From: Candidatus Bathyarchaeota archaeon
Lineage (GTDB): Archaea; Thermoproteota; Bathyarchaeia; Bathyarchaeales; DTEX01
Length of the DNA: 57,391 bases
Direction: 5' to 3'
NCBI GenBank assembly: GCA_963714275.1
Contig: CAVQNT010000010.1
Span: 1-57,391, forward strand
Made by a program: the position numbers and the translations under genes
In this document: in pieces, positions 1 through 22,831 of the stretch
How positions within the stretch are numbered: the stretch's first letter is position 1
Layout: each line of letters starts with the position of its first letter
The notes under the pieces: generated by a model
Told to the model about the DNA's origin: nothing
What the model saw: the letters and a program-made list of their open reading frames with translations, nothing else
Database searches by the model: none

Positions 1-174
1 AGCATGCGTGAGAAAGAAGCGTTTGAAGAGTTGATGAACCACTGCCGCAGGCACACCATGGCTGCAGGAGCCTCCGTTAGACCAATCGTATCAGATGCCA
101 TGTTCATGTCCATTCTTCTAGCTCACGAAAAAGAACTGAGAAAAATCAAGGCTTCACTAGAAAAACTTAGCTAA
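1..174 (+). CDS. 3' part of small helical protein of the PolB2-operon-associated family (paralog of 12843..13163)
   Basis: Frame +1 reads EKEAFEELMNHCRRHTMAAGASVRPIVSDAMFMSILLAHEKELRKIKASLEKLS*, close to 12843..13163; not in the ORF track. Confidence 0.85.
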   Translation, partial: SMREKEAFEELMNHCRRHTMAAGASVRPIVSDAMFMSILLAHEKELRKIKASLEKLS

Positions 175-332
175 CTAAAGAGGAAGAACTGAGTTAAACA
201 GCCATTTCAAAACAAAAACCTAAAGTAGAATTATTTCATCAAAGCTGTGAACTCATTAGAGGAGAAACAGTTACCTCGCTAGCGCACGCTTCACAGAAAG
301 TCTTTTCAGAAGTCTAAACTATAGGATAGTTC

Positions 333-1061
333 ATGAGACCTGAAGAAGATGCATATGGTCAAGAGATATGGGCTCATTATAATGGAGAAGGAAGTTTTGA
401 ATTAGTCGAAAGGGATGACAGTTATATTGACACAGGACCAGAGACGAGAGTTTATTTTTCAAGTTATGAAGAATGGGCTCCTCAAGAAAAGAAGGCAATG
501 GAATTTGTCAATGGAAGAATTTTAGATATAGGTTGTGGAGCTGGCAGGCACTCATTATATCTACAGGAGAAAGGCTTTGATGTCCTTGGCATAGATGTCT
601 CACCCCTTGCCATAAAGGTCTGCATGCTTAGGGGATTGAAGAAAACTGAAAATATATCAATAGATGAGGTCAGTTTCAAATCAAACTCGTTTGACACGAT
701 TATTATGATGGGAAACAATTTTGGTTTGTTTGGAAGCTCCATAAAAGCTAAGAGACTGCTTAAAAGATTTCATAAAATGACTTCTAAAAGTGCTTTGATT
801 ATTGCTGATACTATTGATCCATATAAGACTAAGAATCCATTCCATTTAGAGTACCAGGAATTCAATAGGAAAAGAGGTAGGATGAGTGGACAATTAAGGA
901 TTAGAGTGAGATATAAAAAATATGCCACGAAGTGGTTCGACTATTTGATAGTTTCCAAAGATGAAATGAAAGAAATACTAAGAGGAACAGGATGGAAGAC
1001 TAAGGAATTCATAGATTCTGAAAATTCACAATATATAGCCATTATCGAAAAAGTTTCTTAG
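333..1061 (+). CDS. Class I SAM-dependent methyltransferase
   Basis: ILDIGCGAG motif I, GIDVS motif II. Confidence 0.9.
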
Positions 1062-1201
1062 TGAGAGATAAGGTTTGCATGATTTTTTGTAATGATAGAC
1101 TAAAGCATATCATTGACTTAACCTTGAGATTTATCGAGTAGCTAATTTAAATGAGATTTAGGCAAATATCTAGTTAGCGGTCCATGTGGGAGACGTGGTT
1201 T

Positions 1202-2103
1202 ATGGAATATGCTATCAACGTCAGGAATTTTATTTTAGGTGATGAGGACACATGGTTTCGACTTTTGAGAGAGCTTACGGAAACCTTGAATCCAGGTCTA
1301 TTGACGACATAAGAAATCTAGTTACGTCGAAGAGTTTCTCTTCAGATTGGGTCTTTTTTGGGGAAGCAAATCAGGAAATTGTTGGCAGCATAAGAGTAAA
1401 GCCTCTGCCGCATCGAGATTATTATGAACTCTGGGACCTGGCAGTCTCAAAGGAACATCAGTGAAGCCAAGTGATGAGCCTTCTGATACAGACTGCTCTC
1501 TCATACCTCAATAAAGAGAACGCCAAGTACGTCAAGGGATACACCTTGTCCATAGAGCCGTATGTTTCAGCCTATGTCAACCATGGCTTCAAGCCCATCA
1601 GGCGAATTTTACGGATTGATTGGGATCTTGATGATATGTTGCCTATCATGGGAACGCGTGACGACATCAACGTTAAAGATGCCTCTTTTTATGAGCCTGA
1701 GAAGATTGCCAGCATATTTGTCAAGTCTCTCGCGCCCTTCTGGAACTGGTGGATAGAAGAGGAGGGAGGACCAGAGGAAGTCACTAAACAAATCAAGGAA
1801 TGGCTGAGACAGCAACAATGGTTTGCGGCCGAGTTGAATCAAGAGGTGGTGGGCTTGACTGGTTTCTCAGTGGGAGACGGAAAGATGGGGAAATTCATAG
1901 GAGTAGTGGTTCTTCCAGAGCACAGGATGAAAAGAGTAGGCTCAACCCTAATGCAAAACGTTCTCAAAGAGGCTAGAAAAGCTGGACTAAAAAGCCTAAG
2001 AGTGTACACCATGGCTTACCTAGACCGCTTAGCGCCAGGAGCAGTCTTATACCTCAAATCAGGAGGACGAATAACAGCAGAATACCTCCAACTTGAGAAA
2101 TAA
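1202..2103 (+). pseudogene. Tandem-domain GNAT acetyltransferase, interrupted (frameshift ~1250, in-frame TGA 1462-1464)
   Basis: ORFs 1252..1464 and 1471..2103 share a frame; GNAT motifs LAVSKEHQ* and VVLPEHRMKRVG; upstream ATG 1202 gives MEYAINVRNF. Confidence 0.75.
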
Positions 2104-2194
2104 GAGACATTGAAACTTAGCGCAGCGCTTGCAATCCAAATTACGAAAGACATTTTTCTGTCTATGAGTGAGCTAATTATGGCACAGGGAACTC

Positions 2195-2530
2195 TTGATG
2201 ACTAAGAAGGTTTTGTTTGTTTGTACTGGGAATTTTGACCGTTCGCCGACAGCTGAAAACATGTACAAAAATGTTGAGGGCTTGGAGGTTAAGTCAGCCG
2301 GGATTTCGGTTGCCGCACAGAAACCACTTTCAAAGGAGCTTGCGGAATGGGCTGACGCCATTTATGCCATGGAAGAACTACACAAAAAAGTCATTGTTAA
2401 GCTTGATCCCTCAGCAAAAAACAAGACAACAGTCTTAGACATTCCTGACATTTACTATAGAGACCAACCTGAATTGAAAACAATCTTAAAACAGAAACTG
2501 GATCCCCTTTTAAAACAGCCAAAGTCCTAA
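2195..2530 (+). CDS. Low-molecular-weight protein-tyrosine-phosphatase-like protein
   Basis: P-loop FVCTGNFDRSPTAE, DIPD motif. Confidence 0.85.
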   Translation: MMTKKVLFVCTGNFDRSPTAENMYKNVEGLEVKSAGISVAAQKPLSKELAEWADAIYAMEELHKKVIVKLDPSAKNKTTVLDIPDIYYRDQPELKTILKQKLDPLLKQPKS

Positions 2531-2546
2531 ATATGACGGCTGGGAT

Positions 2547-2581
2547 CCCTCCTTCCCCTATTTTCACAGACTGCTTAAGTA
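2547..2581 (+). promoter_or_regulatory. C-rich/CACAGA-N4-TTAA promoter-like box, copy 1 (no downstream + strand gene)
   Basis: ccctccttcccctattttCACAGActgcTTAAGTA aligns with copies at 12763, 17064 and 19940. Confidence 0.5.
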
Positions 2582-2920
2582 AGTTTCAGAGTTAGGCTCT
2601 GGTCTGTCATGTTGACTGCTAAAAATAGAAAATATCTGCAAGAAGCTAAGATATTTTATTTCTATGAGTTGCATGGCTTCTTGGAAGTAGTTGAGCACGT
2701 TCGTGCCTTTGTCTGTGATCTTGTAGGTTATGTGGCATCCCAACTCTTCTGAAGTAATCAGCTTTTGCTCTATCATTGTGTCGAGAACATGCGTAAGAGG
2801 TTTCCAAGAAAGATTAGTTCGATACATAATTCGTGTTGGCTTGTTGACGCCTTTCTTTATTGCCTGTAAAATGTCGAGGTAAATTTCAATCCGTGAACGT
2901 TTAGTACTCACATTAAACAC
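2564..2920 (-). CDS. Archaeal winged-helix transcriptional regulator
   Basis: KRSRIEIYLDIL...KPTRIMYRTNLSW...YKITDKG pattern; C-terminal tail may be read-through. Confidence 0.85.
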   Translation of the reverse strand: MFNVSTKRSRIEIYLDILQAIKKGVNKPTRIMYRTNLSWKPLTHVLDTMIEQKLITSEELGCHITYKITDKGTNVLNYFQEAMQLIEIKYLSFLQIFSIFSSQHDRPEPNSETYLSSL

Positions 2921-3175
2921 CTACTAGCTAATTTTTTCTTATTGAGTTTTAACCGAGAAACACATGTAATTACAATTAACATTAAGATTATGAACCAAAG
3001 GGACAGACGTTGGATCTTTCTTAAGGGTCGCTAACAATGTGCATCCCTCTACACAACACAAAAACATTCTTTTTCTTTAGTTTTGAATTGTATAGTGCAG
3101 CTGGAGGAGAAAAGAGTACTAAACCTTTAAATATTACGGCGTTATGTGGAGTGGGTTTACGTGGTGATTGAAGAA

Positions 3176-3277
3176 ATGAAAAGTGAAACAAAAGGTTATT
3201 TGGAGATGGCTGTGTTAACTGTCTTCGGAAATACTGCTGCATACGCCATTATTCTATACCTGCTTAGGGCAATCTGA
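3176..3277 (+). CDS. Small single-TM protein (33 aa)
   Basis: MKSETKGYLEMAVLTVFGNTAAYAIILYLLRAI*, preceded by TATA-like ctttaaata (~3125) and ggtga; below ORF-track cutoff. Confidence 0.45.
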   Translation: MKSETKGYLEMAVLTVFGNTAAYAIILYLLRAI

Positions 3278-3398
3278 AAGCCTAAGCGCGTATGCCATTA
3301 ATTAAAAACTTATTAGATTTTTAATTCTTCTCAACTTAGCGCATGTGCCATTCAGAGATGCTGACTTGCTGGAACAAGAGAAAAAGAAACCATCAATG

Positions 3399-3674
3399 TC
3401 AAGCTCTTTTGTGTTCGATCTGCCATACTGCCACTAGATTCACAACTATGATGGCGAGGATTATTGTGAAACTCCAATGATCTATCCAAACATGTCCATC
3501 TACTATAACGGGAACAGTGCCACCGAACCAAATCTGAGTACGCAGCAAAGTCCAACTAATAGCACTTACTAACGGAAGGTCTAACAGTCTACCCCACTCG
3601 AAATAGCTCAAGACCGAATATAGCAACAACAATGTAAGATTGATGAAACATATCTTAACAAATACTTTAGGCAT
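3399..3674 (-). CDS. Hypothetical membrane protein
   Basis: Hydrophobic segments; ggtga SD-like element upstream. Confidence 0.6.
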   Translation of the reverse strand: MPKVFVKICFINLTLLLLYSVLSYFEWGRLLDLPLVSAISWTLLRTQIWFGGTVPVIVDGHVWIDHWSFTIILAIIVVNLVAVWQIEHKRA

Positions 3675-3867
3675 GCCTATTCACCATCAACTAGAGTGTT
3701 TGTATACTGATTTAATGCCATGCTTTAGAACATTCATGTTCTAACATTAGAACACAGTAGCGCGCGCTAAGAGTCTCCTATTGACCCTTCCTTGCTTCTC
3801 CCAAAGTTTCATGTTTCCATAAAATATATATCTGTTAACAATAGAAGTAATATTTGGAAGGGGAAAA

Positions 3868-4059
3868 ATGCCTTCTCTCTATCTTAAATGCAAGAGCTGT
3901 GGCGTAACGTTCTCATCAAAAATGAGCATGGACACAGAGAAATTCAAAAAGGAAATCATGAAGTATAATACGCATAAATGCCCAAAAGGGCACGTGAACA
4001 CTTATAATAAAGAGGACTATTTCTTTCAACAAGCACTTTCGGAATTACTGACGACATAA
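3868..4059 (+). CDS. Small Zn-ribbon-like protein
   Basis: CKSC...CPKGH; SD-like ggaagggg; last codons lie inside the 126-bp repeat. Confidence 0.7.
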   Translation: MPSLYLKCKSCGVTFSSKMSMDTEKFKKEIMKYNTHKCPKGHVNTYNKEDYFFQQALSELLTT

Positions 4060-4167
4060 AAAAACATATATCACTTAATCCGCATATCTTTGTTGTTCGG
4101 GGAGCCCAACCTGTCTAAATATACCCCCTTCTCATCTCCCCGGCAGCTTGGGCTTCCCGGGCAACTT
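4042..4167 (+). repeat. 126-bp dispersed repeat, copy 1 (promoter + hairpin RNA + start of T tract)
   Basis: Near-identical to 15687..15812; differences only in the hairpin loop. Confidence 0.95.
4092..4165 (+). ncRNA. Putative 74-nt hairpin small RNA, copy 1
   Basis: 24-position terminal stem (19 WC, 4 G-U, 1 C.C), 26-nt C/U-rich loop, aaaaaaacatatat BRE/TATA ~26 nt upstream, T-rich tract downstream. Confidence 0.65.
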
Positions 4168-4306
4168 TTCTTTGCAAGTTTTACAAGTCAACTTTTAAAG
4201 TATTTCTAAAAAACAAAACAGTGACAAAAAGACCATGTAATGAATTTTTTATTCTGATAATGGTGAAACCAGAAGCCCATGCCGGAAGCGACACCCAGCT
4301 GCTGGG

Positions 4307-4822
4307 CTACCTTTTCTTATGGAATCTCTTATACGCAGAAGAGACCAGCAAATATCCATAGAATACTATGCCCAGTATTCCCATCCACACACAAAAACTA
4401 TACACTTCTGAAGTCAAAGATGGATTATAAAGCGGATTTATCGTCAGTGGATAGAATGGTCTTATGTCGCTATACAGCGGAGAATCTAGCAAGACGTGAA
4501 ATAGGGTGCCAAGAACTCCAGGAACCAAGAAAGACCTGAGATTAAGGGTCTGATCCTTCTCTAGTAGGAGTATCTTGTGAAGTGGATACAAAATCTTCTC
4601 AAGAAGAAACATCGCGTAACCTAAAGCAAGGCCAACAAAGAAAGCTGAGAAGAATGTATGCAAATAGCCATGTAAGGGATATCTCAAACCTAGAAAAAGG
4701 ACTAGAAAAGGCTCAACATCAACAATGACATTAGCTACTACGAATGTGGGCGCATGCATATATTTTCTGAGTGGAAGCCCAAAACCTAGAGCTGGACCTA
4801 GATGAAACGGTGTAAACGGCAT
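4307..4822 (-). CDS. Membrane-bound metal-dependent hydrolase-like protein
   Basis: MPFTPFHLGP start; DVEP, HGYLHT and HVLLD motifs. Confidence 0.85.
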   Translation of the reverse strand: MPFTPFHLGPALGFGLPLRKYMHAPTFVVANVIVDVEPFLVLFLGLRYPLHGYLHTFFSAFFVGLALGYAMFLLEKILYPLHKILLLEKDQTLNLRSFLVPGVLGTLFHVLLDSPLYSDIRPFYPLTINPLYNPSLTSEVYSFCVWMGILGIVFYGYLLVSSAYKRFHKKR

Positions 4823-4961
4823 GTTTTCTTCACATATCTGTAACTTTGATTCCTTTTTGCTTATCTGGACAGCTGAGCTAGATATCCATAATTTGACTTT
4901 AGGTTTGTTCTTTGAGACATGTCAAAGCTAGGTCTTGGTACTTTGTTTCCTGCGCATTACT

Positions 4962-6025
4962 TCAAACGTGAGTGTTGCGAAGGCCAGTGTAAGAACTGCG
5001 CCCACAGCGATGCCAACTAGAAGAAAGTAGGCAGCGTATAATTGTGAGCTGAATCGAATCATCTTGGCTAGGGTTCTCTGGCTCTTTCTCAACCATTATT
5101 GAAGATTCAGAAATCACAAAATCCTTTGTTAGCCAGCTCATTGGACCTTCATACTCCATAACGGTTAACCACGCGCCTTTCGGAAACAATTCACCTATTC
5201 TAAGGTCGATGATGCTTCAGCTGGCCTTTTGTTAAATTGAGATTCGATTGGAGCCCACAGGCTAGCACTTCGGAAATACGCTCTCACAATCGGTGTATAT
5301 TGAGATAAGACAAAATTATCCTGAATCTTGCCATTGGTCAGCAGGAAGAGAGTAATCTTAGTGTCTCCAGAGATTGGAGACGAAATCCTTAACGGATAAT
5401 AAAGAAAATTGGTTTCAAACTGGTACAGAATAGGTTCAACGCTCTTCTGGTCAGCTGACAACTGGATAATATCAAGGGCAAAGAACCGGAACCCTAGAGC
5501 CATGTAATCTTCGATCACGGCTTCAAATTTTTTCAGCGAAATCCCGCCAGTAACATTGTTAGATTCCAGGAACTCTCCAGCCCAAGATGTAAGCTCCGAG
5601 GCGTCTCCTGCTTTAACGACTGTAACATCGTGGGCTCCTATCTTCTCGTGGAACGTAACCTCTATGCTCCCAATGCTTTCAGACTGATAGTTATCACCTA
5701 AAACTGCTCGTGCATGTACCCCTAGTAATTCCTGAATTGTGATAAAGGATTCAAAGCTAGCCTTCTCAATCTTCTTAGGGTTTGAGGGAAGAGGCATTAT
5801 CTGAAGAACTAACGTCTCGCTTGCTGCGCTTACATCGGTGGAAAGAATCAATATCTCCTCTTGTCCATTCCAAGCAATGATGGCTTTCTGCCCAGGCTCA
5901 TAAACCGAGATGCTGGGGACCACAGGTACCATTCCCATATCTGCAAGACCAATAGAAATATACGGCAAGAACAATGCGAAAAGCAAAGCAAAAGAAAGAC
6001 TCCGATATAACTGTCTCTTATCCAA
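4962..6025 (-). CDS. DUF2330-like exported protein (frameshifted near 5190-5250)
   Basis: Signal peptide, ADMG...QKAIIAWNGQEEILILS, YYPLRISS; C-terminus continues in 4962..5189. Confidence 0.65.
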
Positions 6026-6227
6026 GACTAACTCCCACCATAACTAATTATTCTATACACATAATAAGTCTACATTTCAGAACAGCTAAGCTAGCTAAGA
6101 TAACTTTAATATTTTGGTCAGAACCTTGAAGTTATTCATTACTTCTAGTCTAGGTGCACTAGCATGTAGCCTTTTTGCTACATATTTAGGTGCTGGTGGT
6201 GGATGGGCTGTATTTGCTAGTTATATG

Positions 6228-6446
6228 TCAGCGCGCGTGCGCTTCACAGAGTCTCTTTATTTTTTCAGATATTAGGAAGCCTGCGAGTATAATTGCTCCA
6301 CCCAATATGTAAACAAGGATTTTTTGATACTGATTTATATCAATAGAATATACTGCCAAAATGCCCACTATCACCCCAGCCATGGCTATGGGTAAGTAAG
6401 CCTCTGTGATATGACGAGTTTTCATTTTTTGCCACCTTCTGCACAT
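6228..6446 (-). CDS. Small two-TM membrane protein
   Basis: Two hydrophobic helices; stop codon lies in a GCGC junction motif. Confidence 0.55.
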   Translation of the reverse strand: MCRRWQKMKTRHITEAYLPIAMAGVIVGILAVYSIDINQYQKILVYILGGAIILAGFLISEKIKRLCEAHAR

Positions 6447-6483
6447 ATTAATATTTAATGGTTAGAGCTAGTTAGCTAATCGG

Positions 6484-6774
6484 TTAAGGATTCTTCAAAG
6501 CTTTGTAAAGAAGATACGAAACCAAAGTGGAAAGAAACGTTTCAAAACCAATAACAATTACAACCCGCTCTAAAACCTCACTCATGCCATAAGGAACCCA
6601 GATAGTTATCGGAATTTCATGTGGCGTCATATCAGGCTCGTTATGTCCCAAAAAGAAACTACGGACATATGGAGAAAGCGCAATATTCCCTAGAAACCAC
6701 AACATCAACAGCACAAATGGCACAACAAAAAACCAACGACCCCTCAACCACATTCCCCTTACCCATAACAACAA
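6484..6774 (-). CDS. Hypothetical membrane protein
   Basis: Two hydrophobic segments; flanked on both sides by AGCTAG motifs. Confidence 0.5.
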   Translation of the reverse strand: MLLWVRGMWLRGRWFFVVPFVLLMLWFLGNIALSPYVRSFFLGHNEPDMTPHEIPITIWVPYGMSEVLERVVIVIGFETFLSTLVSYLLYKALKNP

Positions 6775-7002
6775 AAACTTGGAGACCCTGCCATATAAGC
6801 TAGCTAGCTGTTTGGTTCATACAAAATATTGTCATAATCTTGTGTTCATAAAAACTTAAATCCGTCTTACCTCTCTGTATTATTTGGGGAGTCTATTGCC
6901 TTCAAAAAATGCATAAAAGGAACATGCAAATAAAATCCGCACCCAACTAGTTCAGTAATAACTTTGAGTTTAGAAATAGGTTTTATGGGGCTATGATGCA
7001 GA

Positions 7003-8148: not shown

Positions 8149-8262
8149 GCCAGTCAGCTATCTCTTGTATCAAGTCTAGAAGCCGGAAAAGGCATACACA
8201 ACATAGTCTCGAGGCGCCTCTGATCGTGGGTTCTGCTGCTTGGTTCAAGGTTGATACAAGAG

Positions 8263-9748: not shown

Positions 9749-9770
9749 AAAACCTTGACCTTTACGCAAT

Positions 9771-11376: not shown

Positions 11377-11458
11377 AGATTTATTTATTTTCGTAACCGT
11401 AGGCTCCCAGCCCCATATGATTATCCACCGTAAGATTAAAAAATTTTACTTTAAGAAG

Positions 11459-12667: not shown

Positions 12668-12762
12668 AAGTCCAAGCTTTGATGAAACAGTATAAACAAT
12701 TTAGGTGAAAAATCGACCCTTCTCGTTTCATTTTTTGAAAACAAGACTTATTATTATTACAA

Positions 12763-12800
12763 CCCCCTCTCTCCCCTTGTTTGCACGGATTCTTTAAAAG
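12763..12800 (+). promoter_or_regulatory. C-rich/CACGGA-N4-TTAA promoter-like box, copy 2
   Basis: ccccctctctccccttgtttgCACGGAttctTTAAAAG upstream of 12843. Confidence 0.6.
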
Positions 12801-12842
12801 GGTTTTGAGTCAGCTCTAATGCCCCTATAGGGTGGTTGTGTT

Positions 12843-13163
12843 TTGGGTAAGACTGTTCCTTCCTTTCGTATGAAGCTTGAAAGCGAGATTGCTAAATGGA
12901 AAGAATTCATGAAGGCTCTTCCAGGCAACTCAGACAAAGAAGCTTTTGAAGAGTTAATGAATTATTGTCGCAGTTACGCGTCAGCTGCGGGAGCTGCTGT
13001 AAGGCCGATCGTGTCAGATGCTATGTTCATGTCCATTCTTCTAGCTCAAGAAAAAGAACTGAGAGAGATCATGGCTTTACTTGAAAAACTTAACAACGAG
13101 AAGGAGAAGCAGCAGGATGAAAATTCACAGCTGGGTCTCAAGAAAGAAGTACCTGCACAATAA
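12843..13163 (+). CDS. Small helical protein of the family encoded next to archaeal PolB2 (arCOG07300-like)
   Basis: MGKTVPSFR...W..F.KAL...DKEAFEELM...A.G....P.....MSILL..EK pattern; family recalled from memory. Confidence 0.75.
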   Translation: MGKTVPSFRMKLESEIAKWKEFMKALPGNSDKEAFEELMNYCRSYASAAGAAVRPIVSDAMFMSILLAQEKELREIMALLEKLNNEKEKQQDENSQLGLKKEVPAQ

Positions 13164-13365
13164 GGCCGCATACGAATATGAAAGGTTCTGCGTACCTGTA
13201 CCTAAACGGTTACAAAGCATCGTGAAACCCTTCGCCAACAGAGAAGTCAATATCAAAATAGAACCACACAAAGACGGCTTCACAATGCAAGTCCACCTTT
13301 CCTCCCGCCCCAAAACTTCTAAAGACAAGAAAAATAGCGAAGAAAAGCCTTCACGAACCCCGTAA
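13117..13365 (+). CDS. Small basic protein, possibly AbrB/SpoVT-like (paralog of 17947..18159)
   Basis: YEYERFCVPVPKRLQSIVKPF vs YQYEQIVMPIPRKFHDLVKPY; ATG at 13117. Confidence 0.65.
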   Translation: MKIHSWVSRKKYLHNKAAYEYERFCVPVPKRLQSIVKPFANREVNIKIEPHKDGFTMQVHLSSRPKTSKDKKNSEEKPSRTP

Positions 13366-13569
13366 AAACGTTTATGCGCACCGAAAAACACCCCGTCAAA
13401 ATCCCCACTTCTATACATACCTAAGCCATGAATTTAACAGGAAAATGTACATCAATCCTAAATACGGTTCCCAACTGCGATTTTGCTATAGGCATTTCTG
13501 TACACAGAAACGTTTTCGCCTATAGAACTCCTTGTTGCATAAAAATGTGTAAAAAGCTGAAAAACCCCA
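13358..13569. promoter_or_regulatory. Conserved intergenic control region, module A
   Basis: ccccgtaaaaacgttt (16 nt) and tgtgtaaaaagctgaaaaacccca (24 nt) are identical in module B; inverted aaaacgttt...gaaa / tttctgtacacagaaacgtttt pair. Confidence 0.7.
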
Positions 13570-13638
13570 AGCCCAAAAATTCGTCATTCATGCAGCCTTG
13601 ATGGCTAAAGCTTGTCTGTTTAAGGGCTTGTTAAGGAC

Positions 13639-14025
13639 ATGACAAGAAATGGGAAACCAGGACTTTCGGTCTTTAAGGGTAGAGAAGCAAGACTGAACAG
13701 AATGATCCTTCTCTTTCTTTGCAAAGAATGTTGTTTGAACATTTGGCAAGTCTATAAGAGAGTAAGAGAAACCCGAGGTTTTCGGCATCTAAGATACCAT
13801 GTTATTAATAGACGCATAAGAGACTTGGAACAAGAAGGATTCATCGAAGTAACGACTGTAAGAGAGATGCCTCAAGGACAAAAAGTGAAATTCTTCCAGC
13901 CTACCACAAAAACCTACCTCGCCTTCCTCCTAGATATCATTAATTTTGACCAACTCATACAGTCAGCAAACAACACAGACATCATCACATTACTAGCAGC
14001 CTTATCAGCCGCAACTATGACTTAG
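13639..14025 (+). CDS. Winged-helix DNA-binding protein (paralog of 18432..18809)
   Basis: LSVFKGREARLN...YHVINRRIRDLEQEGFIE. Confidence 0.8.
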   Translation: MTRNGKPGLSVFKGREARLNRMILLFLCKECCLNIWQVYKRVRETRGFRHLRYHVINRRIRDLEQEGFIEVTTVREMPQGQKVKFFQPTTKTYLAFLLDIINFDQLIQSANNTDIITLLAALSAATMT

Positions 14026-14104
14026 AATCCTTATTTTCTTAAGAAGGACATCTTCCATAACTTCTAATTACTCCTATACTCATAGAATTATTGTGGGGAT
14101 ATTG

Positions 14105-14251
14105 ATGGGCGATAGATCCCAATGGAGCGAGTTGATCGAGGCATCAGAGGAACTGCTCAATGCATACGCTCAATTGAGGGCAAAAGCAGCCAATGTATCT
14201 GATGCAAGAGAGTCAAGCATGGAAACCGAAAATAGCCGACTTCTTAACTAG
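14105..14251 (+). CDS. Possible small helical protein (48 aa)
   Basis: MGDRSQWSELIEASEELLNAYAQLRAKAANV..., gggga upstream. Confidence 0.3.
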   Translation: MGDRSQWSELIEASEELLNAYAQLRAKAANVSDARESSMETENSRLLN

Positions 14252-14275
14252 CCTTTTTCATGTCTTAATACTTAG

Positions 14276-14599
14276 CTATTTTCGCTCTAGCTTGAAGATC
14301 ACTGGTCTTAATCCGTCTGGGCAACACGCTACTGCAACTCCAGTTTCATCAAAATACTCAGGATACCAGGGATTGCCACCAAACCTGAGCGTCATAATTA
14401 TCGCGAACATTGCCTCCCAAGCCCAGGTGCAAAACTCGTTTGGCCTACAACAGTATTCATCAACCTGGAATACCTGTCCTTCTTTGAAGACGGGACATGG
14501 ACCACTATACTTTGCCTTGATTGGAGGATCTTTGAATACTTCTTTGGTGTCAAAACGCTTGAGCACTGTAATCTCTAAGTAACTTTCCTTCCTCTTCAA
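14276..14599 (-). CDS. TIGR04076-family protein
   Basis: GPCPVFKEGQVF...FCTWAW...CCPDGLRPVIFKLER. Confidence 0.85.
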   Translation of the reverse strand: MKRKESYLEITVLKRFDTKEVFKDPPIKAKYSGPCPVFKEGQVFQVDEYCCRPNEFCTWAWEAMFAIIMTLRFGGNPWYPEYFDETGVAVACCPDGLRPVIFKLERK

Positions 14600-14658
14600 A
14601 TAAACGCCTCACACATTGTCTAGCCCGCGCACTTTTATGGCTTATGGAAGGACCTTCG

Positions 14659-14700
14659 TTTGGGTTTGGTGTTAAATTTTAATCCAAACCCAAACCCAAA
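14659..14700. repeat. Inverted repeat tttgggtttgg-N14-ccaaacccaaa containing a recurrent motif
   Basis: Perfect 11-bp arms; right half recurs at 16274 and 18805. Confidence 0.7.
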
Positions 14701-14881
14701 CAGGCTATCTAACAGAGCCTAATAGCATAGCTAGTAGAGGGTGTAGGGGGTACACCTACACCTAGACCTACACCTACAAACAAAACAAATAAAAAAAACA
14801 CACACAAAAACACACAAAAACAAAAACTTTATACGAACAGAAAAAGAGGGGAAGCTGAAATCAGAATACGATTTGTGGTGG

Positions 14882-15292: not shown

Positions 15293-15391
15293 GACAAATC
15301 ACCCGCTAAGAATAAGTGAGTGCGCGTGAATATTTAAGCTTAAATAATTCATTGAGCAGAAGAAAAAAAGAAAAGAAATTCTCGATAGAAG

Positions 15392-15686
15392 TTAGAAATC
15401 AAAATTAGGCGTTCTGGGAATCCATGTTTCTCTTTCGCTACGTAAATACTTAGCAAATAATAATGCTTCTTCGTTAATTAGGGGTTCAAGGGTTTGTCTT
15501 TGACCGTGTTTTATTCTGGGGACATCAACCTTAGACTCGAAATAGCTGTTAAGCTTCCTCATCAAATCTGATGTTTTAGGATCGTTCAAGTATTCACGTT
15601 TAGCCATCTTGCTTCTGGAAAGTCTTTCAGTCTTAACTGTGAAGTCTTTAACCCTGAGACCTTGACAATATTGGATTAAAAAATCA
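15392..15686 (-). pseudogene. cas1: 3' remnant of a stand-alone Cas1-like gene
   Basis: DFLIQYCQ...KDFTVKTE...REYLND...PRIKHGQRQTLEPLINEEALLFAKYLR...WIPR resembles, from memory, the C-terminus of Bathyarchaeia solo Cas1; truncated at the 126-bp repeat. Confidence 0.6.
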
Positions 15687-15812
15687 GAATTACTGACGAC
15701 ATAAAAAAACATATATCACTTAATCCGCATATCTTTGTTGTTCGGGGAGCCCAACCTGTCTAAATATTTCCCTTCTCATCTCCCCGGGCAGCTTGGGCTT
15801 CCCGGGCAACTT
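15687..15812 (+). repeat. 126-bp dispersed repeat, copy 2
   Basis: Near-identical to 4042..4167. Confidence 0.95.
15737..15810 (+). ncRNA. Putative 74-nt hairpin small RNA, copy 2
   Basis: Stem identical to copy 1, loop variant, same promoter, T-rich tail. Confidence 0.65.
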
Positions 15813-15952
15813 CTTTTCATCATTCATCCTGCTTTAGATATCTGAAGCCTAAAATTTTTAATAGCTCGCCAGCCATGGGACAAAAAATGTTGCCTCTTTT
15901 TTGTGCGCAATTCTAAGATAAACCTTTAAACGAGGAGAACAACTGTAAATTT

Positions 15953-16198
15953 GTGGGAGTTGATTCTGTGCCTGTCGCTTTTGTCCTTATAAACACAGAG
16001 ATTGACGCTATGGAAAAAGTCTTGAAAGCCTTAGAGAACGTCGAAAACGTAAAAGAAGCTTATAGCACATTTGGAGTATACGACGTAATTGTTAAGGTTG
16101 AAGCACCGTCTATGGACAAGATCAAAGATTTAGTAACTTACCGAATAAGAAGGCTGGATGGCGTTAGATCAAGCTTAACGATGATAGTTATTGAGTAA
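15953..16198 (+). CDS. Stand-alone Lrp/AsnC ligand-binding domain protein
   Basis: AFVLINTE...FGVYDVIVKVEA...IRRLDGVRSSLTMIV. Confidence 0.9.
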   Translation: MGVDSVPVAFVLINTEIDAMEKVLKALENVENVKEAYSTFGVYDVIVKVEAPSMDKIKDLVTYRIRRLDGVRSSLTMIVIE

Positions 16199-16280
16199 AT
16201 AAAAATAGAATTCCAAAAGGCACTAGCTGGCTAGCGGTATTTTTCTAGCTCAGCTAGAAACATGGTAAAACTATAAAATT

Positions 16281-16520
16281 TTAATCCCAAACCCCAAATA
16301 GAGATAGAGAAAATTGACCAGTTAATTTATTTACATTTCTTTGTATAAGCTCAATATAGCCGCATTTCTTACAATAAAGCGGAATAATTTTATCGCCATA
16401 CCAGTCACCTTTCTTTGAGAAAAGGACTTCCCAAAAATGTGCATGGGTAGCAATCAAACTCCTGCCTTTTTCCATTTCTCCATTACATTTGGGGCATTTC
16501 TTGACTTCGTTTTCACTCAT
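16281..16520 (-). CDS. Small Zn-ribbon protein
   Basis: MSENEVKKCPKCNGEMEKG...YCKKCGYIEL; start reassigned to ATG 16520. Confidence 0.75.
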   Translation of the reverse strand: MSENEVKKCPKCNGEMEKGRSLIATHAHFWEVLFSKKGDWYGDKIIPLYCKKCGYIELIQRNVNKLTGQFSLSLFGVWD

Positions 16521-16551
16521 GGTTACTCCCGCTAAAATAGTATCAGTAAGG

Positions 16552-16990
16552 TTATGTTTCCTTTCCCTGCGTGGGTATAAGGCCGAGTTGTTGCATAAAG
16601 CCATAGGTATCATACCTAACCCATTCCTCCACAAACTTGCCATCAGCAATGCGGTCAATGATGATCTGCGATATCGTTACTTTCTTATTGGTAGAACCGG
16701 TATCACCCATTTTTCCACTATAGGTGCCAGTCATTGTTAAGCGAACTGCCACCTTATCCTCTTCAACAATCATATCATCAATAGTGGAATGAGCGTCTGG
16801 AATCTCGTTGAATGATTCGTCATTAGCTTGCTTGAAGTCCTTAAGACCACGTATATCCTTGCTGTGCGGGCAATGTAACACGATGTTGGTGTCATATAAC
16901 TCGTCTATTACGGTCATGGCAGCCGTCTTTCCTTTATTGGTCTCCTCAATTAGACGACGCACAAGCGCCTTAATTTCTTTCACAGACAAA
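16552..16990 (-). CDS. SnoaL-like ester/polyketide cyclase
   Basis: IPDAHSTIDDMIVEEDKVAVRLTMTGT...GKFVEEW; start approximate. Confidence 0.85.
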
Positions 16991-17063
16991 CCAAACCACC
17001 CGCTAATCGCCAATATAATTTTTATTCTAAAATTAAAAATAAGCCTTATTAAGCTATAAGATT

Positions 17064-17098
17064 CCCCTCTCCCTCTGTCTTCACAGACCTCTTAAATA
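17064..17098 (+). promoter_or_regulatory. C-rich/CACAGA-N4-TTAA promoter-like box, copy 3
   Basis: cccctctccctctgtcttCACAGAcctcTTAAATA upstream of the RadA-like gene. Confidence 0.6.
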
Positions 17099-17153
17099 CG
17101 TTTTTGCCGAGTTAGGTGCACGCTGGATTTCGCAATTCCTAGAGGAAGATGCT

Positions 17154-17906
17154 ATGTTGAAGCTCATCATGCCATTCACGGGCGTTCATCAAACAGCCGT
17201 CCACGGCGCGGAGTCCTTAACCTTCGGCGTCGAAATCATAGACAAGCTTTTCGGAGAGCTGAAAATGGGAGAACTCGTCGTCCTTCACGGTTCGCAAGTG
17301 TGCCACTTTCTTTCGGAACTGCTGTGTATCCGAAGCCAGCTTCCCACGGCTGAAGGGGGATTAAACTCGTCTGCTGTCTTCATCGACGGCAGCAACCGCT
17401 TCGATTTGTACCTGATCTCAGAAAACGCGCGTCTGCTTGGACTGGATCCTGAGGAAACCTTGAAAAACATCTGGGTATCCAGAGCGTTCACGAGTTACCA
17501 GCTCACCGCCCTAATCACTGAGAAGTTATCCGAACTTCTCAACCGGTTAAACTCGAGACTCGTCGTGATCTCGGACATCGCCACCCTGTACTGCGACTCA
17601 GACATCGAGCTGTTTGAAGCGAAGAGAACGTTTAACCGCGTCGTCCGTTTCCTCTGGAACCTCGTAAGAGAAAAAAACCTGCTTTTGGTGGTAACCTCTT
17701 TCTCCTCCAAAAACAGGCGAAAACGGCTACTTGAACAGTACCTTTTCGGACGATCCGACGTCTCAGCCAGGCTTGAGGAAGGAAACCCGCACGTAAAATT
17801 AACATTAGAGAAACATCCGTCTAAACCCGCAGTTTCAGTTGACCTGTTTTTTAACAAACCGAGGAACCAGTTTCTGCTGGAAGAGTTCATGGATGTTAAA
17901 GAATGA
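17154..17906 (+). CDS. Inactivated RadA/RecA-fold protein (PolB2-operon type)
   Basis: QLPTAEGGLNSSAVFIDGSNRFD, NIWVSRAFTSYQL, LVVISD; Walker A degenerate (HGSQVCHF). Confidence 0.85.
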   Translation: MLKLIMPFTGVHQTAVHGAESLTFGVEIIDKLFGELKMGELVVLHGSQVCHFLSELLCIRSQLPTAEGGLNSSAVFIDGSNRFDLYLISENARLLGLDPEETLKNIWVSRAFTSYQLTALITEKLSELLNRLNSRLVVISDIATLYCDSDIELFEAKRTFNRVVRFLWNLVREKNLLLVVTSFSSKNRRKRLLEQYLFGRSDVSARLEEGNPHVKLTLEKHPSKPAVSVDLFFNKPRNQFLLEEFMDVKE

Positions 17907-17946
17907 ATGTTACCGATTCTTTAAAATGAGGTAAGGAGGAAAGTGT

Positions 17947-18159
17947 TTGAGGCTTCGCCGCTGCGTTTTGAAGCAGCACTACCATAAGAAAGGTTCTTAC
18001 CAGTATGAACAGATCGTTATGCCTATTCCTAGAAAGTTTCATGATCTCGTGAAGCCTTATCTTAACAAGGACTTTGAGGTGTCTGTCCAAGTTCCCCCGC
18101 CCCCACATGAAGGATTAATGATAATTTTAAAGCCTAAGAAGAGTTCCAAACCCCCGTAA
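17947..18159 (+). CDS. Small basic protein, possibly AbrB/SpoVT-like (paralog of 13117..13365)
   Basis: YQYEQIVMPIPRKFHDLVKPYLNKDFEV; ggagga SD upstream. Confidence 0.7.
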   Translation: MRLRRCVLKQHYHKKGSYQYEQIVMPIPRKFHDLVKPYLNKDFEVSVQVPPPPHEGLMIILKPKKSSKPP

Positions 18160-18393
18160 AAACGTTTCTATATATAGAAAAATGCCCTTCTAAAACCAGA
18201 AAAAACCATGCCTTGCAATCCTGAAAATCAACAGTTTAAACATAAAAATGATTAATCTCCTTATATTGCTGGAATTTTCTACATGTAGAAAAAGTTTGCC
18301 TTATAGTATTTTTCTATGTATAGAAACGAATTCACCGCAGTCTTGCACGAAAATTATGATACATAAATCTGTGTAAAAAGCTGAAAAACCCCA
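18152..18393. promoter_or_regulatory. Conserved intergenic control region, module B, with three TTTCT-N6-AGAAA palindromes
   Basis: tttctatatatagaaa 18165, ttttctacatgtagaaaa 18275, tttctatgtatagaaa 18311. Confidence 0.75.
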
Positions 18394-18431
18394 CTCGTCA
18401 ACCTCACGGATAAAGAGCGTGGGAGGGAATA

Positions 18432-18809
18432 GTGAAACCAAGGCTCTCCGTCTTCACAGGACGAGAGGCAAAGCTAAACAAAGCTATCTTTCAAGTACTT
18501 GCCACAGAGGGCGCACTGACAATTTACGAGATCAGCAAGAAAGTAAGAACCCACAGATCATTAAGGTACAATAAATATTCAGTGATAAACCGCCGAGTCA
18601 GAAGCCTAACCGACAAGGGATATATCGAGACAATTAGCGCCAAAAGAACACAAACTGGCTTTCAAGCGCAACTCTACCAACTAACACTAAGAGCCTATCT
18701 TGCCATCACATTAAGCAAGATCGACTTAGACAGGTTCATTGAAGAAGCCAGTGAAAAGAACATCATAAATGCCTTAACTTCTATAACACCTCTCCTAGAT
18801 GAAGGTTAA
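18432..18809 (+). CDS. Winged-helix DNA-binding protein (paralog of 13639..14025)
   Basis: LSVFTGREAKLN...YSVINRRVRSLTDKGYIE...LYQLTLRAYLA. Confidence 0.8.
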   Translation: MKPRLSVFTGREAKLNKAIFQVLATEGALTIYEISKKVRTHRSLRYNKYSVINRRVRSLTDKGYIETISAKRTQTGFQAQLYQLTLRAYLAITLSKIDLDRFIEEASEKNIINALTSITPLLDEG

Positions 18810-18922
18810 ATTTTAACCCCCAAACCCAAAAAATATTGGCACAATAGCAAGCTAGCTAGATATCACACAAAACGATATTAAGAAACAATACAAAATTGAA
18901 GAAAAATGTTACTACTAGGGTG

Positions 18923-19443
18923 ATGGATCTTAACGGAAATCAAGATTCGCAGAGCAGAACTGTTAGACTTGAATAAGATCATCAGAGCTACAGTTAGACC
19001 TACAGAGCCACCTTGAAAAATCTAGCTCCCGCATATGGAGATACACCGACGAAAGAAAAGGAAACTTAAGACAACAATTTAAGAATGACATCCAGAATGA
19101 AAATGTTCTACTTTTAGTAGCTGAAGCTAAAAAAAAGACTGTCGGATTCGCGCAAGGAATTATAATGCACAGAACGGATTATTTGCCTAACATTATTGGA
19201 ATGCTGTCCACAATATATGTAGACCAAAAGTTCAGAAGGCAAGGTATTGGAAGAAAACTGGTCTATGAAATCTGTAAATTTTTTAAAGCCAATAAAGTTG
19301 AAAAGATCTATCTAAGATATGTTTTAGGAAACATTGAAGGCGAGAAATTCTGGAAAGACCTAGGATTCAAAAAGATTCTAGTGACCGCTGGAACTGACAT
19401 CAACAAAGTGGAGAAAAACTTGCAGAGAAAAGTAAAAATTTAA
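18923..19443 (+). CDS. GNAT acetyltransferase (frameshifted 5' part)
   Basis: IYVDQKFRRQGIGRKL, NIEGEKFWKDLGF; upstream frames give EIKIRRAELLDL and LLVAEAKKKTVGF. Confidence 0.8.
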
Positions 19444-19474
19444 TTCCTTCCTTCCCAAACCTAAACATATTGAA

Positions 19475-19873
19475 TTAAGACTTTTCATTACCAATCACTT
19501 TTCCCTCTGAATCCGTTAATAGAACACCTTTACTGAGATCAAGAAGGACAAGACGATTACCCCAAGGATCTTCCACAATTGCACACTTACCCACATCGAT
19601 GTCAAATGGCTGTACGATCACTCTAGAACCCGCATCCACAAGATACTTGACACTTAATACAACCGATTCAACGAGAAGATCGGTCTCCTGCCCCTTTCGA
19701 GAAGTTTGAATGACTATTTCGGTGTCAGATTCTGGCATCTGAAAACCAGCCGAATCGTCTTTTCTCCACTTGAGTTTATGTCCCAAAGTATTTTGATAGA
19801 ATTTTATACCTGATTCGAGGTCTGAAACATGAAACAGTACACAGTCAACTTTCCTTATTAATGGAAAATTCAT
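19475..19873 (-). CDS. VOC/glyoxalase family protein
   Basis: VSDLESGIKFYQNTLG...EDPWGNRLVL. Confidence 0.9.
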   Translation of the reverse strand: MNFPLIRKVDCVLFHVSDLESGIKFYQNTLGHKLKWRKDDSAGFQMPESDTEIVIQTSRKGQETDLLVESVVLSVKYLVDAGSRVIVQPFDIDVGKCAIVEDPWGNRLVLLDLSKGVLLTDSEGKVIGNEKS

Positions 19874-19939
19874 CGTTCAATCACCCAGTCTACCTACTAT
19901 AATTGCACACGCATTTGAAATTTAAAAAAGCTAGCCAAA

Positions 19940-19974
19940 CCCCCCTGCCCCTACTCTCACAGATTGCTTATATT
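19940..19974 (+). promoter_or_regulatory. C-rich/CACAGA-N4-TTAT promoter-like box, copy 4
   Basis: cccccctgcccctactctCACAGAttgcTTATATT; followed by ggagg and only a short or degraded ORF. Confidence 0.55.
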
Positions 19975-20245
19975 CAATTTTTGTAAAGGTTTTTGCGGAG
20001 GTTGCTAAGGTTGGTGGACAGACTAATAGAAAACCATATTTCCCCCACAAATTGCCCGACTGCTTCCATTTTATGGATACCGTTGCAACCTCCAATTAGG
20101 CAAAGACCACCATAACCTGCATATGTGATCTTAAACAGTTAGCAAGCGGATGGCTTGAGAAGACGATAATAAACGCTGTTGTGAACCGTATGGAAAAAGG
20201 TTTAGCTGTCTCCTAAGTGCGCGCGTTAATATACCCAATCCAAAA

Positions 20246-20827: not shown

Positions 20828-20882
20828 TAATTAAGCCGTAACTTAACCGTGCACTTCGGTAAGGACCAGCAGTGTATATCCG

Positions 20883-21083
20883 CTAAGTAAAATCCTTGCC
20901 AAACTTGGACATCGACGAAAGACCTTGTTTATTGACTCTTATTACATTGTAGTTCCTATCGAAATAAACTTTAATGACTTCACATTTTGAATTCGGACAC
21001 ATAAAACCCCGTTTCTGTTTAACCAGTTTTGAACCGCAAACCGGGCATTTTGGCTCAGCCTTCTTCAATTGACGAACCCCCAT
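20883..21083 (-). CDS. Small Zn-ribbon protein
   Basis: CPVCGSKL...FMCPNSKC; start reassigned to ATG 21083. Confidence 0.65.
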   Translation of the reverse strand: MGVRQLKKAEPKCPVCGSKLVKQKRGFMCPNSKCEVIKVYFDRNYNVIRVNKQGLSSMSKFGKDFT

Positions 21084-21176
21084 TAAGGAACAGAAACAAA
21101 AGATATTAGAGTTTCGAACATTTACCATGCTAGTTTCTAAATCATCAATAACTAGTAAAGTTATAACTTGATTATG

Positions 21177-21241
21177 TACTTTGAAGGGGTCTCCAAAGTA
21201 TAGTATACTTTGAAGAGGCTCCCAAAGTATAGTATACTTTG
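21177..21241. repeat. 29-bp tandem repeat forming two perfect 19-bp palindromes (caaagtata-g-tatactttg)
   Basis: Palindromes at 21194-21212 and 21223-21241 in the divergent intergenic region upstream of the integrase operon. Confidence 0.9.
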
Positions 21242-21296
21242 CGGGCGCCAGAAATGTCTTATAGTTTTGTTTCAACAAATGTTCAAGGTGACATAA

Positions 21297-21557
21297 TTGG
21301 TTAGTTTAGTGGAGTCTTGGGAAGACCTAGAAGAGTACGCACAGTGGTGCAGAACCGGAGCCTACCAGATGCGGGAAACGGTTGAAGGCATCGAACTTCG
21401 GGTCTTCACAGGCAGGTATGGCTTTGTAAAATGCTTTGGGAACACGCAGGATCCCCTGTTTAGCCACATCTTAGACTTCTGCAAGACTGAAGGCTTCATA
21501 AAAGTCCTGGGCAACGTGCCAGACGACCTCTTCTTTTCATTGCACAGAGAAGCCTAA
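21297..21557 (+). CDS. Hypothetical protein upstream of integrase
   Basis: 86-aa ORF with aggtga SD. Confidence 0.7.
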   Translation: MVSLVESWEDLEEYAQWCRTGAYQMRETVEGIELRVFTGRYGFVKCFGNTQDPLFSHILDFCKTEGFIKVLGNVPDDLFFSLHREA

Positions 21558-21570
21558 TCTTTAGGCAATA

Positions 21571-22831
21571 ATGGGCAGGGGAGTGGCTGGCTTCCACGAT
21601 GCTTCGTTCAGAAACGCGTATTTCACCAACAAGCGGGTTAACCAAGAAGGGAAGTACGGCGAGTATGGCGTCGTCCTACACCAGCCCCCCACATGCCCAG
21701 AATGTGGTCAACAAAAGTTTGGAAAGACGGATTCCGAAGTGACAGTCTTATTCCTATTCAGAGGCGGCTTTGCCGTGACTGCGGCTACCGGTTTTCTGAC
21801 CATGTTCAAACTAATAAAAAGGAGAACCAGCATAGTAGTGAGTGCCTAGTACGCGTTTCGGACAACGAGATGATAAACTTGGCCACAGTGGAACCCCGAA
21901 TTCAAGAAAAGGCTGCGGGAGCCACAGTCAATGATGCAAAAAGTCTAATCTTTGAGTATGCGTGGATGCTTAAGAAACAAGGCTATCGAGAAGGAACAAT
22001 CAGGGAATACGCGAATCAAATAGCGCTCTTAAAAAAATATGGCGCTGACATATTCAACCCAGAATCAGTAAAATCTGTTCTAGCACAAGCAAGCTGGAAA
22101 GAATCAACCAAGGCTGTAATTACAAAAATCTATTCCAATTTTCTTTCATTCCACAACTTGACTTGGCATGAACCAACATATAAACAAAGAAAAACGCTTA
22201 AATTCATACCGACAGAAAAGGAAATCAACGATCTAATTAGCTGTTGCGGAAAAATCACAAGCTTAGCCTTAAGAATAGCGAAAGAAACTGGAGCTCGAAT
22301 CGGTGAAATAGCAAAGTTAAGATGGATCGATATAGACCGAGAAAAAAGAATCCTGAGAATCAGCGAAGCTGAGAAAGGCAGCAATCCAAGAATATTGAGC
22401 ATATCTAACGACCTTATAGCACTCTCGACCACATGCAAAAGAAAGGCGAATACGTCTTCATGACAAATGGCAAACCTATGGTCGCAACACACTTGAGCGG
22501 ACTTCTTCTAAACGGCAGAAAAACAGCAGCCAGAAAACTCATAAATCCAAGACTACTAGAAATCTCGTTTCACACTATGAGGCATTGGAAAGCCACAATG
22601 GAATACCACAAAACCAGAGACATACTGCACGTGAAAGAAGTGCTGGGACATAAATGCATTGAAAACACCATGATTTACATTGACATGGAGAAAGCGTTAT
22701 TCCGTGAAGGAAACGAAGACTTCATAGTTAAAGCCGCTGCAAATTTGGATGAAGCATGCAAACTCCTTGAGGTGGGATTTGAATATGTCTGTGAAATGGA
22801 CGGAAAGAAGCTGTTTAGAAAGAGAAACTAA
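21571..22831 (+). CDS. Tyrosine recombinase/integrase with N-terminal Zn ribbon (frameshifts ~21708 and ~22430)
   Basis: TGARIGE, EKG, HTMRH, LGH, TMIY catalytic set; N-terminal CPECG..KVWKDG...QRRLCRDCGYRF. Confidence 0.9.

Follow-up and report, generated by a model that had tools for sequence, protein, structure and literature searches.

Among described systems, integrons come close to the locus considered here; the features listed for them in the portion of Ghaly et al. (2022, PMC9668308) drawn on in this work are attC sites that fold, open reading frames (ORFs) that lie mostly in one orientation and an integrase, IntI, with an extra domain. The DNA analysed, called the window, is a stretch of 57,391 nucleotides from a Candidatus Bathyarchaeota archaeon (contig CAVQNT010000010.1 of assembly GCA_963714275.1), and its positions 1-22831 form an island in which many gaps between genes carry a short run of the self-complementary word AGCT. 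The likeness to bacterial and archaeal integrons, within the features covered by that part of the account, lies in the accessory GNAT, VOC and SnoaL genes arrayed with a short recurring sequence between units, in the tyrosine recombinase at the edge and in a module order that varies among copies and populations. A preliminary description read the island as a candidate integron-like cassette array that may be driven by the family of that recombinase. By the same partial list of features the AGCT runs are not an integron: each is an 8-25-base run without conserved flanks, present on one copy, cutting genes and found genome-wide, and the integrase is broken and scores far below the IntI cut-off.

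IS5-type elements have 4-base YTAR targets, and IS481 has the target NCTAGN. The AGCT runs resemble the target duplications and footprints of transposons in that a short palindromic target is doubled in tandem, with or without an extra base, where DNA entered or left. They differ in that profile searches of the source genome, which among transposase families covered DDE_Tnp_1, rve, TnpB-type and Y1_Tnp and did not extend to others, gave no match, and in that one run stands at a deletion joint without AGCT in the ancestral left flank. The filler DNA of end joining is similar in that joint bases are absent from both parent flanks and joints cut genes. However, known filler varies in sequence, whereas here one AGCT repeat recurs at hundreds of sites, and Ku had no match in the source genome. 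A C5 methylase, another candidate enzyme, was likewise not matched there. Repetitive extragenic palindromes (REPs) have a conserved, imperfectly palindromic sequence of ~20-40 bases and are associated with a Y1 (RAYT) transposase. With REPs and bacterial interspersed mosaic elements the AGCT runs share their large number, their shortness, their palindromic and intergenic nature and their position near gene ends and at rearrangement-prone spots, but nothing is conserved past ~3 bases of the run and no Y1 transposase was matched.

The AGCT runs form a family, genome-wide and lineage-patchy, that is found right at the edges of DNA segments which underwent duplication, truncation, deletion or reshuffling. 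They are nearly absent from genes, occur at chance level in stable intergenic DNA and are concentrated in variable, paralog-rich regions. On balance, the runs at junctions are probably made or used by a break-and-join process that is not an integron. A literature search that did not extend to supplements found no relevant description of the AGCTAGCT intergenic motif, of CTAGCTAG in archaea or of intergenic or palindromic repeats in Bathyarchaeia.

AGCT runs mark the edges of rearranged DNA

The runs were counted in the whole source assembly (G000; 2.64 Mb in 10 contigs, named from C1; 91% complete), with genes called by a simple codon-usage scorer of our own that yields an intergenic share of 21.7%, probably an overestimate. 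A strong run is AGCT, 0-1 base and a second AGCT. There are 361 strong runs, 284 of them intergenic; a narrower definition gives 295 runs with at least two units (246 with two units, 47 with three, one with four and one with six). Runs measure 8-25 bases, or two to six AGCT units, and a single spacer base is in the majority of cases C (96) or G (65). The information in the flanks is gone past ~3 bases, and therefore the run was rejected as part of a larger conserved element. The AAGTATAAAAA-type box seen beside one indel between the source genome and its closest relative is rare, with 10 copies, 2 of them near AGCT runs.

The density of periodic (AGCT)n 8-mers is 0.806 per kb in intergenic DNA and 0.019 per kb within genes, a difference of ~40-fold, and CTAGCT has a density of 1.30 per kb in intergenic and 0.21 in genic DNA. 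GCTAGC, AGCTAG and TAGCTA rank among the top intergenic-enriched hexamers, alongside GCGCGC, TGTGTG and TATA-like words. In intergenic DNA AGCT recurs at a distance of four bases (n=138) or five (n=146), with echoes at eight and nine; such peaks are unique to AGCT among ten 4-base words and are not seen for GATC, TCGA, ACGT, TGCA, CATG or AATT. The 883 site clusters divide into 412 genic, 272 in tandem spacers, 109 in divergent and 89 in convergent spacers, and one at a contig end. A promoter or terminator at a fixed distance was rejected, given that there is no sharp distance to starts or stops and that the densities in tandem, divergent and convergent spacers are similar (0.78, 0.85 and 0.97 per kb).

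When 10-kb bins are ordered by rising repeat share, motif density per kb of intergenic DNA climbs from 0.37 in repeat-free bins, by our estimate about the level given by base composition alone, through 0.67 and 0.97 to 1.19 in bins with >20% repeat. The preliminary description had set two checks for its motif, namely that it be denser in accessory than in core DNA and that synteny breakpoints coincide with it. Both were borne out, the first by a density 3.2x higher in paralog-rich than in repeat-free intergenic DNA and the second by the coincidence of the motif with synteny and homology breakpoints, with a peak just outside the latter. Whole-genome self-comparison gives 1,641 distinct breakpoints, and on their outer, intergenic side motif coverage per 1000 is 35.0 at 0 to +14 and 8.6 at +40 to +100, over an intergenic baseline of 6.0. 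Six control words at the same breakpoints show no peak of this kind (peak/far values: GCGCGC 3.5/2.2, TATATA 3.0/4.0, TGTGTG 11.8/8.7, TTTAAA 4.5/7.4, AAGCTT 2.9/2.3, GATC 7.5/7.6). A motif lies within -8 to +20 of 117 of the breakpoints, and the share with a motif rises with the identity of the duplicates, from 9/387 (2.3%) below 75% through 37/664 at 75-85% and 68/513 at 85-95% to 25/134 (18.7%) at 95% or more.

The motif is usually confined to one copy of a duplicate. Among 1,068 boundary pairs it is on one copy only in 146 and on both in 13, with 6.9 two-sided cases expected. Pieces bounded by runs, from 84 bases to 1.9 kb long, have partners that are run-free at the edges, and several of these partners extend as longer homology (for example C6:366552). 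Three pieces look as if excerpted between runs: 84 bases at C2:298270, 107 bases at C2:366774 and 166 bases at C7:188396, the last 100% identical to its partner. Run-bounded fragments cut through genes, as seen in the 84-base fragment, a Cas1 tail and the remainder of a PIN gene. An empty site for the run-flanked C2:366774 fragment was not found in five same-genus genomes, and at C7:188396 the relatives hold different content.

The closest genome (G002) was compared over 392 kb, with 34 collinear gaps. Among the 30 nearest relatives it has the second-highest motif count, 23 vs a control of 1; the source genome has 80 vs 7. The 26.3 kb of gap DNA in the source genome holds 13 strong runs, of which 4 are no farther than 17 bases from the edge of a gap, and the ~180 kb of aligned DNA holds 4; the 85 kb of gap DNA in the closest genome holds 9 runs, none closer than 63 bases to an edge. 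For 18 selected strong sites in the closest genome, a set without a formal control, the distance to an edge of alignment with the source genome is at most 10 bases in 5 cases and at most 35 bases in 7. Runs are not conserved between the orthologous spacers of the two genomes, and where orthologous sites do carry them their length may differ: (AGCT)3 in the closest genome stands against (AGCT)2 in the source genome, and elsewhere AGCTGAGCT against AGCT-AGCT. One event can be polarised as a deletion. In the source genome, AGCTCAGCTAGCT replaces ~470 bases of a PIN toxin locus that the closest genome has kept and that consists of a PIN gene (Pfam E = 1.5e-16) and a weak VapB-like ORF; this run occurs in neither flank of the closest genome, and the ancestral left end has no AGCT.

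In the process proposed here, a break-and-join step acting on DNA ends would leave a self-complementary AGCT repeat at the joint, where the repeat would be either filler or a preferred point of joining or insertion. The run would later decay by mutation and slip in length, and as a by-product it would put stop codons in most frames. The polarised deletion and the trend with recency favour filler scars, but the runs may instead be preferred insertion targets. Several points weigh against this reading. No run is found at 1524 of the 1641 paralog breakpoints or at ~30 of the 34 gaps between the source genome and its closest relative; the process, if real, thus leaves most rearrangements unexplained. 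The association with boundaries falls short of significance when the island is taken by itself (10/102 vs 6.76 ± 2.52; 258 of 2000 permutations reach it). Only one event is polarised, and in the remaining cases DNA may just as well have been inserted into runs already present. Searches for an enzyme gave no candidate. A selected function would also fit the mild peak past stop codons and the abundance of stops in the runs. The gene calls are crude, and the ends of BLAST alignments are approximate.

Across 201 genomes of the class, (AGCT)3 is present in 24 and missing from 177. Its abundance is uneven over at least three families: 70 in G138, 40 in G084, 33 in G102, 25 in G143, 17 in the source genome, and 9 and 7 in others. 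Three same-genus genomes (G001, G005 and G006) have no AGCTAGCTAG. Runs of other 4-base palindromes are seen elsewhere, with GATCGATCGA at 26 sites in G021 and 10 in G027 and TCGATCGATCGA at 8 in G088, and AGCT runs are scarce or absent in these genomes; a different 4-base palindrome may thus be in use in other lineages.

One indel between the source genome and its closest relative, beside a run, was set aside as unrelated to it, since it is bounded by duplicated tRNA-like 3' ends. A 1.8-kb insertion in the source genome (C1:77972-79801, against L021 on G002:C17) has duplicated tRNA-like 3' ends as its edges. In the first 60 kb of contig C1 of the closest genome (L031-L033), no block aligned to the source genome reaches 300 bases at 80% identity; the contig may be extrachromosomal, a large island or foreign DNA that entered the assembly. 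A DUF2341 gene is copied at 98.8% identity over exactly 992 bases (C2:344251-345239 and C7:28053-29044) between unrelated flanks, a very recent duplication of one gene. A 1-kb four-copy repeat considered as an insertion sequence was rejected, being a DUF2341 gene rather than a transposase.

Runs and modules in the window

All 13 sites cited in the preliminary description are present; three of them (167, 1167 and 55201) are loose forms that lack the strict 6-mer. The window contains AGCTAGCT 6 times vs 0.95 expected and CTAGCT/AGCTAG 40 times vs 22.84 ± 4.63, counts reached in 0 of 100 shuffles in either case. Intergenic DNA of the island (7,086 bases) contains 12 sites, or 1.69 per kb; that of the core (22832-50634) contains one in 3,450 bases, and that of the part of the window after tRNA-Ser one in 1,328. 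The island density is about twice the genome-wide intergenic value of 0.82 per kb (Poisson P = 0.016) and is not extreme, given that 5.7% of 491 sliding 22.8-kb windows equal or exceed the site count of the island. The island is denser in the motif than the core, as described earlier; the motif is also genome-wide, and AGCTAGCT lies at 45138 in the core. Over the whole genome, accessory and core DNA do differ in the way described, in the form of a threefold gradient. The runs and the related features are as follows, with strand given where one applies.

167..178: TTAGCTAACTAA, a loose variant, where a truncated gene copy has its stop
2924..2929: CTAGCT, immediately upstream of a winged helix-turn-helix (wHTH) gene module, 2652-3064, with at least 8 paralogs
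4871..4884: AGCTGAGCTAGATA run; paralog boundary at 4914, joint of an X4 contig at 4904
6084..6102: AGCTAAGCTAGCTAAGATA run on the edge of a module; for 4914-6087 the paralog on C5 stops at 6087
6466..6477: AGCTAGTTAGCT; paralog boundary at 6473
6798..6809: (AGCT)3 run; the paralog alignment 6663-6798 stops exactly there, and the other copy has no run
12765..14683: three gene-sized paralog modules (12765-13096, 13100-14046 and 14240-14683)
14672..14701: TTAAATTTTAATCC(A)AACCC repeat, with more copies at 16274-16298 and 18808-18835
14728..14734: TAGCTAG, 27 bases past the palindrome-cored repeat; a joint leaves 14701
15392..15712, minus strand: Cas1 C-terminal remnant; BLAST match of 15447-15686 to C7:144239-144478, overlapping the 3' end of a full Cas1 match
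16223..16260: CTAGCTGGCTAG then TTTCTAGCTCAGCTAGAAA; the paralog alignment 15872-16226 stops here, with joints at 16274, 16294 and 16298
18850..18862: AGCTAGCTAGATA run, inside the stretch skipped by the joint from 18814 to 19909 (X1, X3)
19929..19934: AGCTAG, just before a copy of a 79-base repeat; boundary at 19939
21571..22831, plus strand: pseudogene of a tyrosine integrase, with two frameshifts, in which the zinc ribbon (CPEC...CRDC) is split
45138..45145: AGCTAGCT, an occurrence of the motif outside the island, in the core

Alignments to paralogs end at several of these sites. Those of 10-169 (three paralogs) and 89-169 (a copy on C4) all stop at 169, and five alignments of the wHTH module stop at 2921-2930. 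The modules of 12765-14683 have copies of 83-95% identity in a different order at C2:300661-302500 and C6:364814-367290. The island as a whole is a mosaic of gene-sized modules, with paralogs of 70-97% identity on C2, C4, C5, C6 and C7 that differ in order, and the paralogous sets include copies of the integrase region. It is accessory DNA, in that relatives match 1-20000 solely as scattered gene-sized pieces; long synteny begins at ~22847, directly past the integrase, and continues at 75-91% identity. Pfam bears out the cargo assigned earlier, with a methyltransferase, a VOC/glyoxalase gene, two SnoaL genes, wHTH regulators, an ABC ATPase, a Rad51/RadA-like gene, and GNAT genes and fragments at 1252, 1471, 19165 and 20246. 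The mixed orientation of the genes was likewise found as described. The evidence leans slightly towards the island being one of several mosaic, pseudogene-rich variable regions shaped by the proposed break-and-join process.

Environmental (Logan) contigs of the sequencing sets X1, X3 and X4 were aligned to 1-20000, with interpretation limited to joints and not extended to uncovered stretches. Alternative joints leave 6086, at the run of 6084, in X1 and X3, and the joints from 12749 to 17064, from 13567 to 18400 and from 18814 to 19909 are each found in two sequencing sets. In an X1 contig GCTAGCTAG substitutes for window 2649-3382, a replacement of 734 bases by 9 that is the sole empty-like variant.

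Several alternative joints fall exactly on copies of the TTAAATTTTAATCC(A)AACCC repeat (14672-14701, 16274-16298 and 18808-18835). This palindrome-cored repeat of the same genome resembles the AGCT runs in that its window copies at 14672, 16274 and 18808 are at environmental joints, 16-35 bases from AGCT runs, and differs in having another sequence, TTAAATTTTAA with a C-rich arm. Genome-wide, 23 of the 284 intergenic runs lie within 150 bases of a palindrome core, vs 2.9% of random intergenic positions, and the two are mostly independent.

Three further features were seen in the island. A (GATC)n/(CG)n patch at 15143-15218 lies within the coding SnoaL gene 14882-15292, and environmental contigs either skip 66-96 bases there or add CGCGCGCGC. 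A 130-base repeat is present in two copies (4039-4167 and 15684-15812) that are 96% identical, and its 63-base core (4098-4160) is shared by many members of the genus and family at 84-95% identity, far above its surroundings. The repeat has no Rfam match, and could be a small RNA of a new type or the terminus of an element. The Rad51/RadA-like paralog (17154-17906, plus strand, 250 aa) scores far below the RadA cut-offs, and has a copy of 85% identity at C7:156378-157221 and others in the closest genome and in G005.

Other explanations for the runs

The runs are unlikely to be targets for insertion that undergo target-site duplication. On this reading AGCT would be cut with a 4-base stagger by a transposase- or Cas1-like integrase, the inserted DNA would become AGCT-flanked, and excision or reuse would leave AGCTAGCT-type footprints, sometimes with one base more. 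The tandem unit, a 4-base palindrome with a 0-1-base spacer, fits such a reaction, and the patchy spread over families suggests a moving agent. Runs stand at both ends of 16/1192 repeat segments vs 7.7 expected, although an AGCT repeat makes shared flanks trivial. Arguing against it are the lack of the four transposase matches named above, the absence of AGCT at the ancestral left end of the polarised deletion, and the X1 variant, which replaces 734 bases by 9 and is no simple empty site.

Cas1 was considered as the agent, since runs are 2.2-2.6x denser within 5-20 kb of six Cas1 loci. This excess is largely gone when the loci (0.69-1.92 per kb) are compared with windows of like repeat content (class means 0.44-0.82). 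Cas1 also does not track run-rich genomes, being matched in 3/6 of the others vs 64/201 overall, and several genomes with 3-4 Cas1 matches have no runs. Cas1 was therefore rejected on both grounds, the second being a lack of correlation over the 201 genomes. Cas1 copies as transposon ends were also rejected, as homology stops at the stop codon and no terminal repeats were seen. The source genome has two full Cas1 genes and five fragments, all diverged, with 66-82% identity. A Cas1 gene on C2 is cut exactly at AGCTAAGCTAGCT, in a region of split or truncated genes with runs between most units.

A selected element, rather improbable on the present evidence, would be a multi-frame stop or insulator, a protein-binding site or a termination site that is kept beside genes and carried along with them. 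On 17-base windows at AGCT runs, stops occur in 3.86 of six frames vs 1.58 in random intergenic DNA, and in all six frames in 7.7% vs 0.1%; this make-up may be a side effect or a selected bonus. Coverage has a mild peak past gene stops (7.8 vs 3.7 far away) and none at gene starts (2.5 vs 5.1), and in the window one run lies directly before the ribosome-binding site of the wHTH module. Selection for such a site accords poorly, however, with the chance density in repeat-free intergenic DNA, the like densities in all spacer types, the lack of a fixed distance to starts or stops, the lack of conservation of the runs between orthologous spacers of the source genome and its closest relative, and the same-genus and class genomes that have none.

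The possibility that the runs are ordinary microsatellites, grown by slippage in non-coding DNA and linked to variable regions by the larger amount and younger age of non-coding DNA there, is slight. Unit length does vary at orthologous sites, as slippage would have it, and intergenic DNA is enriched in (GC)n, (TG)n and (TA)n words too. Placement is nevertheless not independent of joints: the fourfold peak of AGCT runs at breakpoints has no counterpart for (GC)n, (TA)n or (TG)n, and a run arose de novo at the deletion joint. The runs are also short, mostly of two units, and their irregular spacing of four or five bases is atypical of slippage arrays.

Integron-like capture by the zinc-ribbon tyrosine integrase family, with the motifs as its recombination sites, is highly improbable. 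Gene-sized modules are indeed reshuffled among at least five loci, several beside integrase paralogs; in dense regions most gene units are parted by AGCT runs; and environmental contigs join the modules differently. The part of the preliminary description that placed the motif at junctions of variable DNA is retained, but an integron-like system run by this integrase family is not. The integrase does contain the zinc ribbon that it was credited with, but as a pseudogene, split over three frames (21571-21849, 21693-22463 and 22433-22831); its paralogs on C2, C4 and C6 have 79-86% identity, and an intact paralog integrase is represented by the 415-aa open frame at C2:557968. Its pieces score 29.8 and 27 bits on TIGR02249, vs a cut-off of 265, in agreement with the earlier remark that an IntI-specific insertion is lacking. 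An array beside its own integrase is not seen, as run density within 5-20 kb of 13 tyrosine-integrase loci is 0.32-0.36 per kb vs 0.50-0.53 elsewhere. On these data the idea that this family drives the system is not supported.

The runs themselves do not have the make-up of integron sites. They lack the conserved flanks and the size of a site that could fold, and an Rfam scan of 1-24000 gave no relevant match, only a spurious Xist match below threshold; attC sites were thus not recognised, as noted earlier, although no dedicated attC finder was used. The motif is mostly on one copy only, and therefore does not travel with a cassette. The pieces that runs bound are often gene fragments rather than whole ORFs, gene orientation is mixed, and ~90% of breakpoints have no motif.

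Meaning for gene turnover in Bathyarchaeia

The AGCT motif is no evidence of an integron, and motif-rich stretches flag variable regions rich in pseudogenes. It is possible, if doubtful, that some Bathyarchaeia have an undescribed break-and-join or paste activity that works through a self-complementary AGCT repeat and leaves a scar wherever genes are deleted, copied or pasted. Such a scar would decay, and would therefore date recent rearrangements. The patchy abundance of runs across families would point to an agent that moves horizontally, and (AGCT)3 is a cheap marker with which to choose lineages and strain pairs for polarising the process and for tracing its agent through phylogenetic profiling.

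If a specific joining reaction left the runs as scars, they would be a sign of some repair or integration activity that has yet to be described for archaea, in a genome without a match to Ku, DDE_Tnp_1, rve, TnpB-type or Y1 (IS200/RAYT) proteins. They would then provide a record, readable from sequence, of where, and roughly when, an uncultivated archaeon gained, lost and shuffled its DNA.

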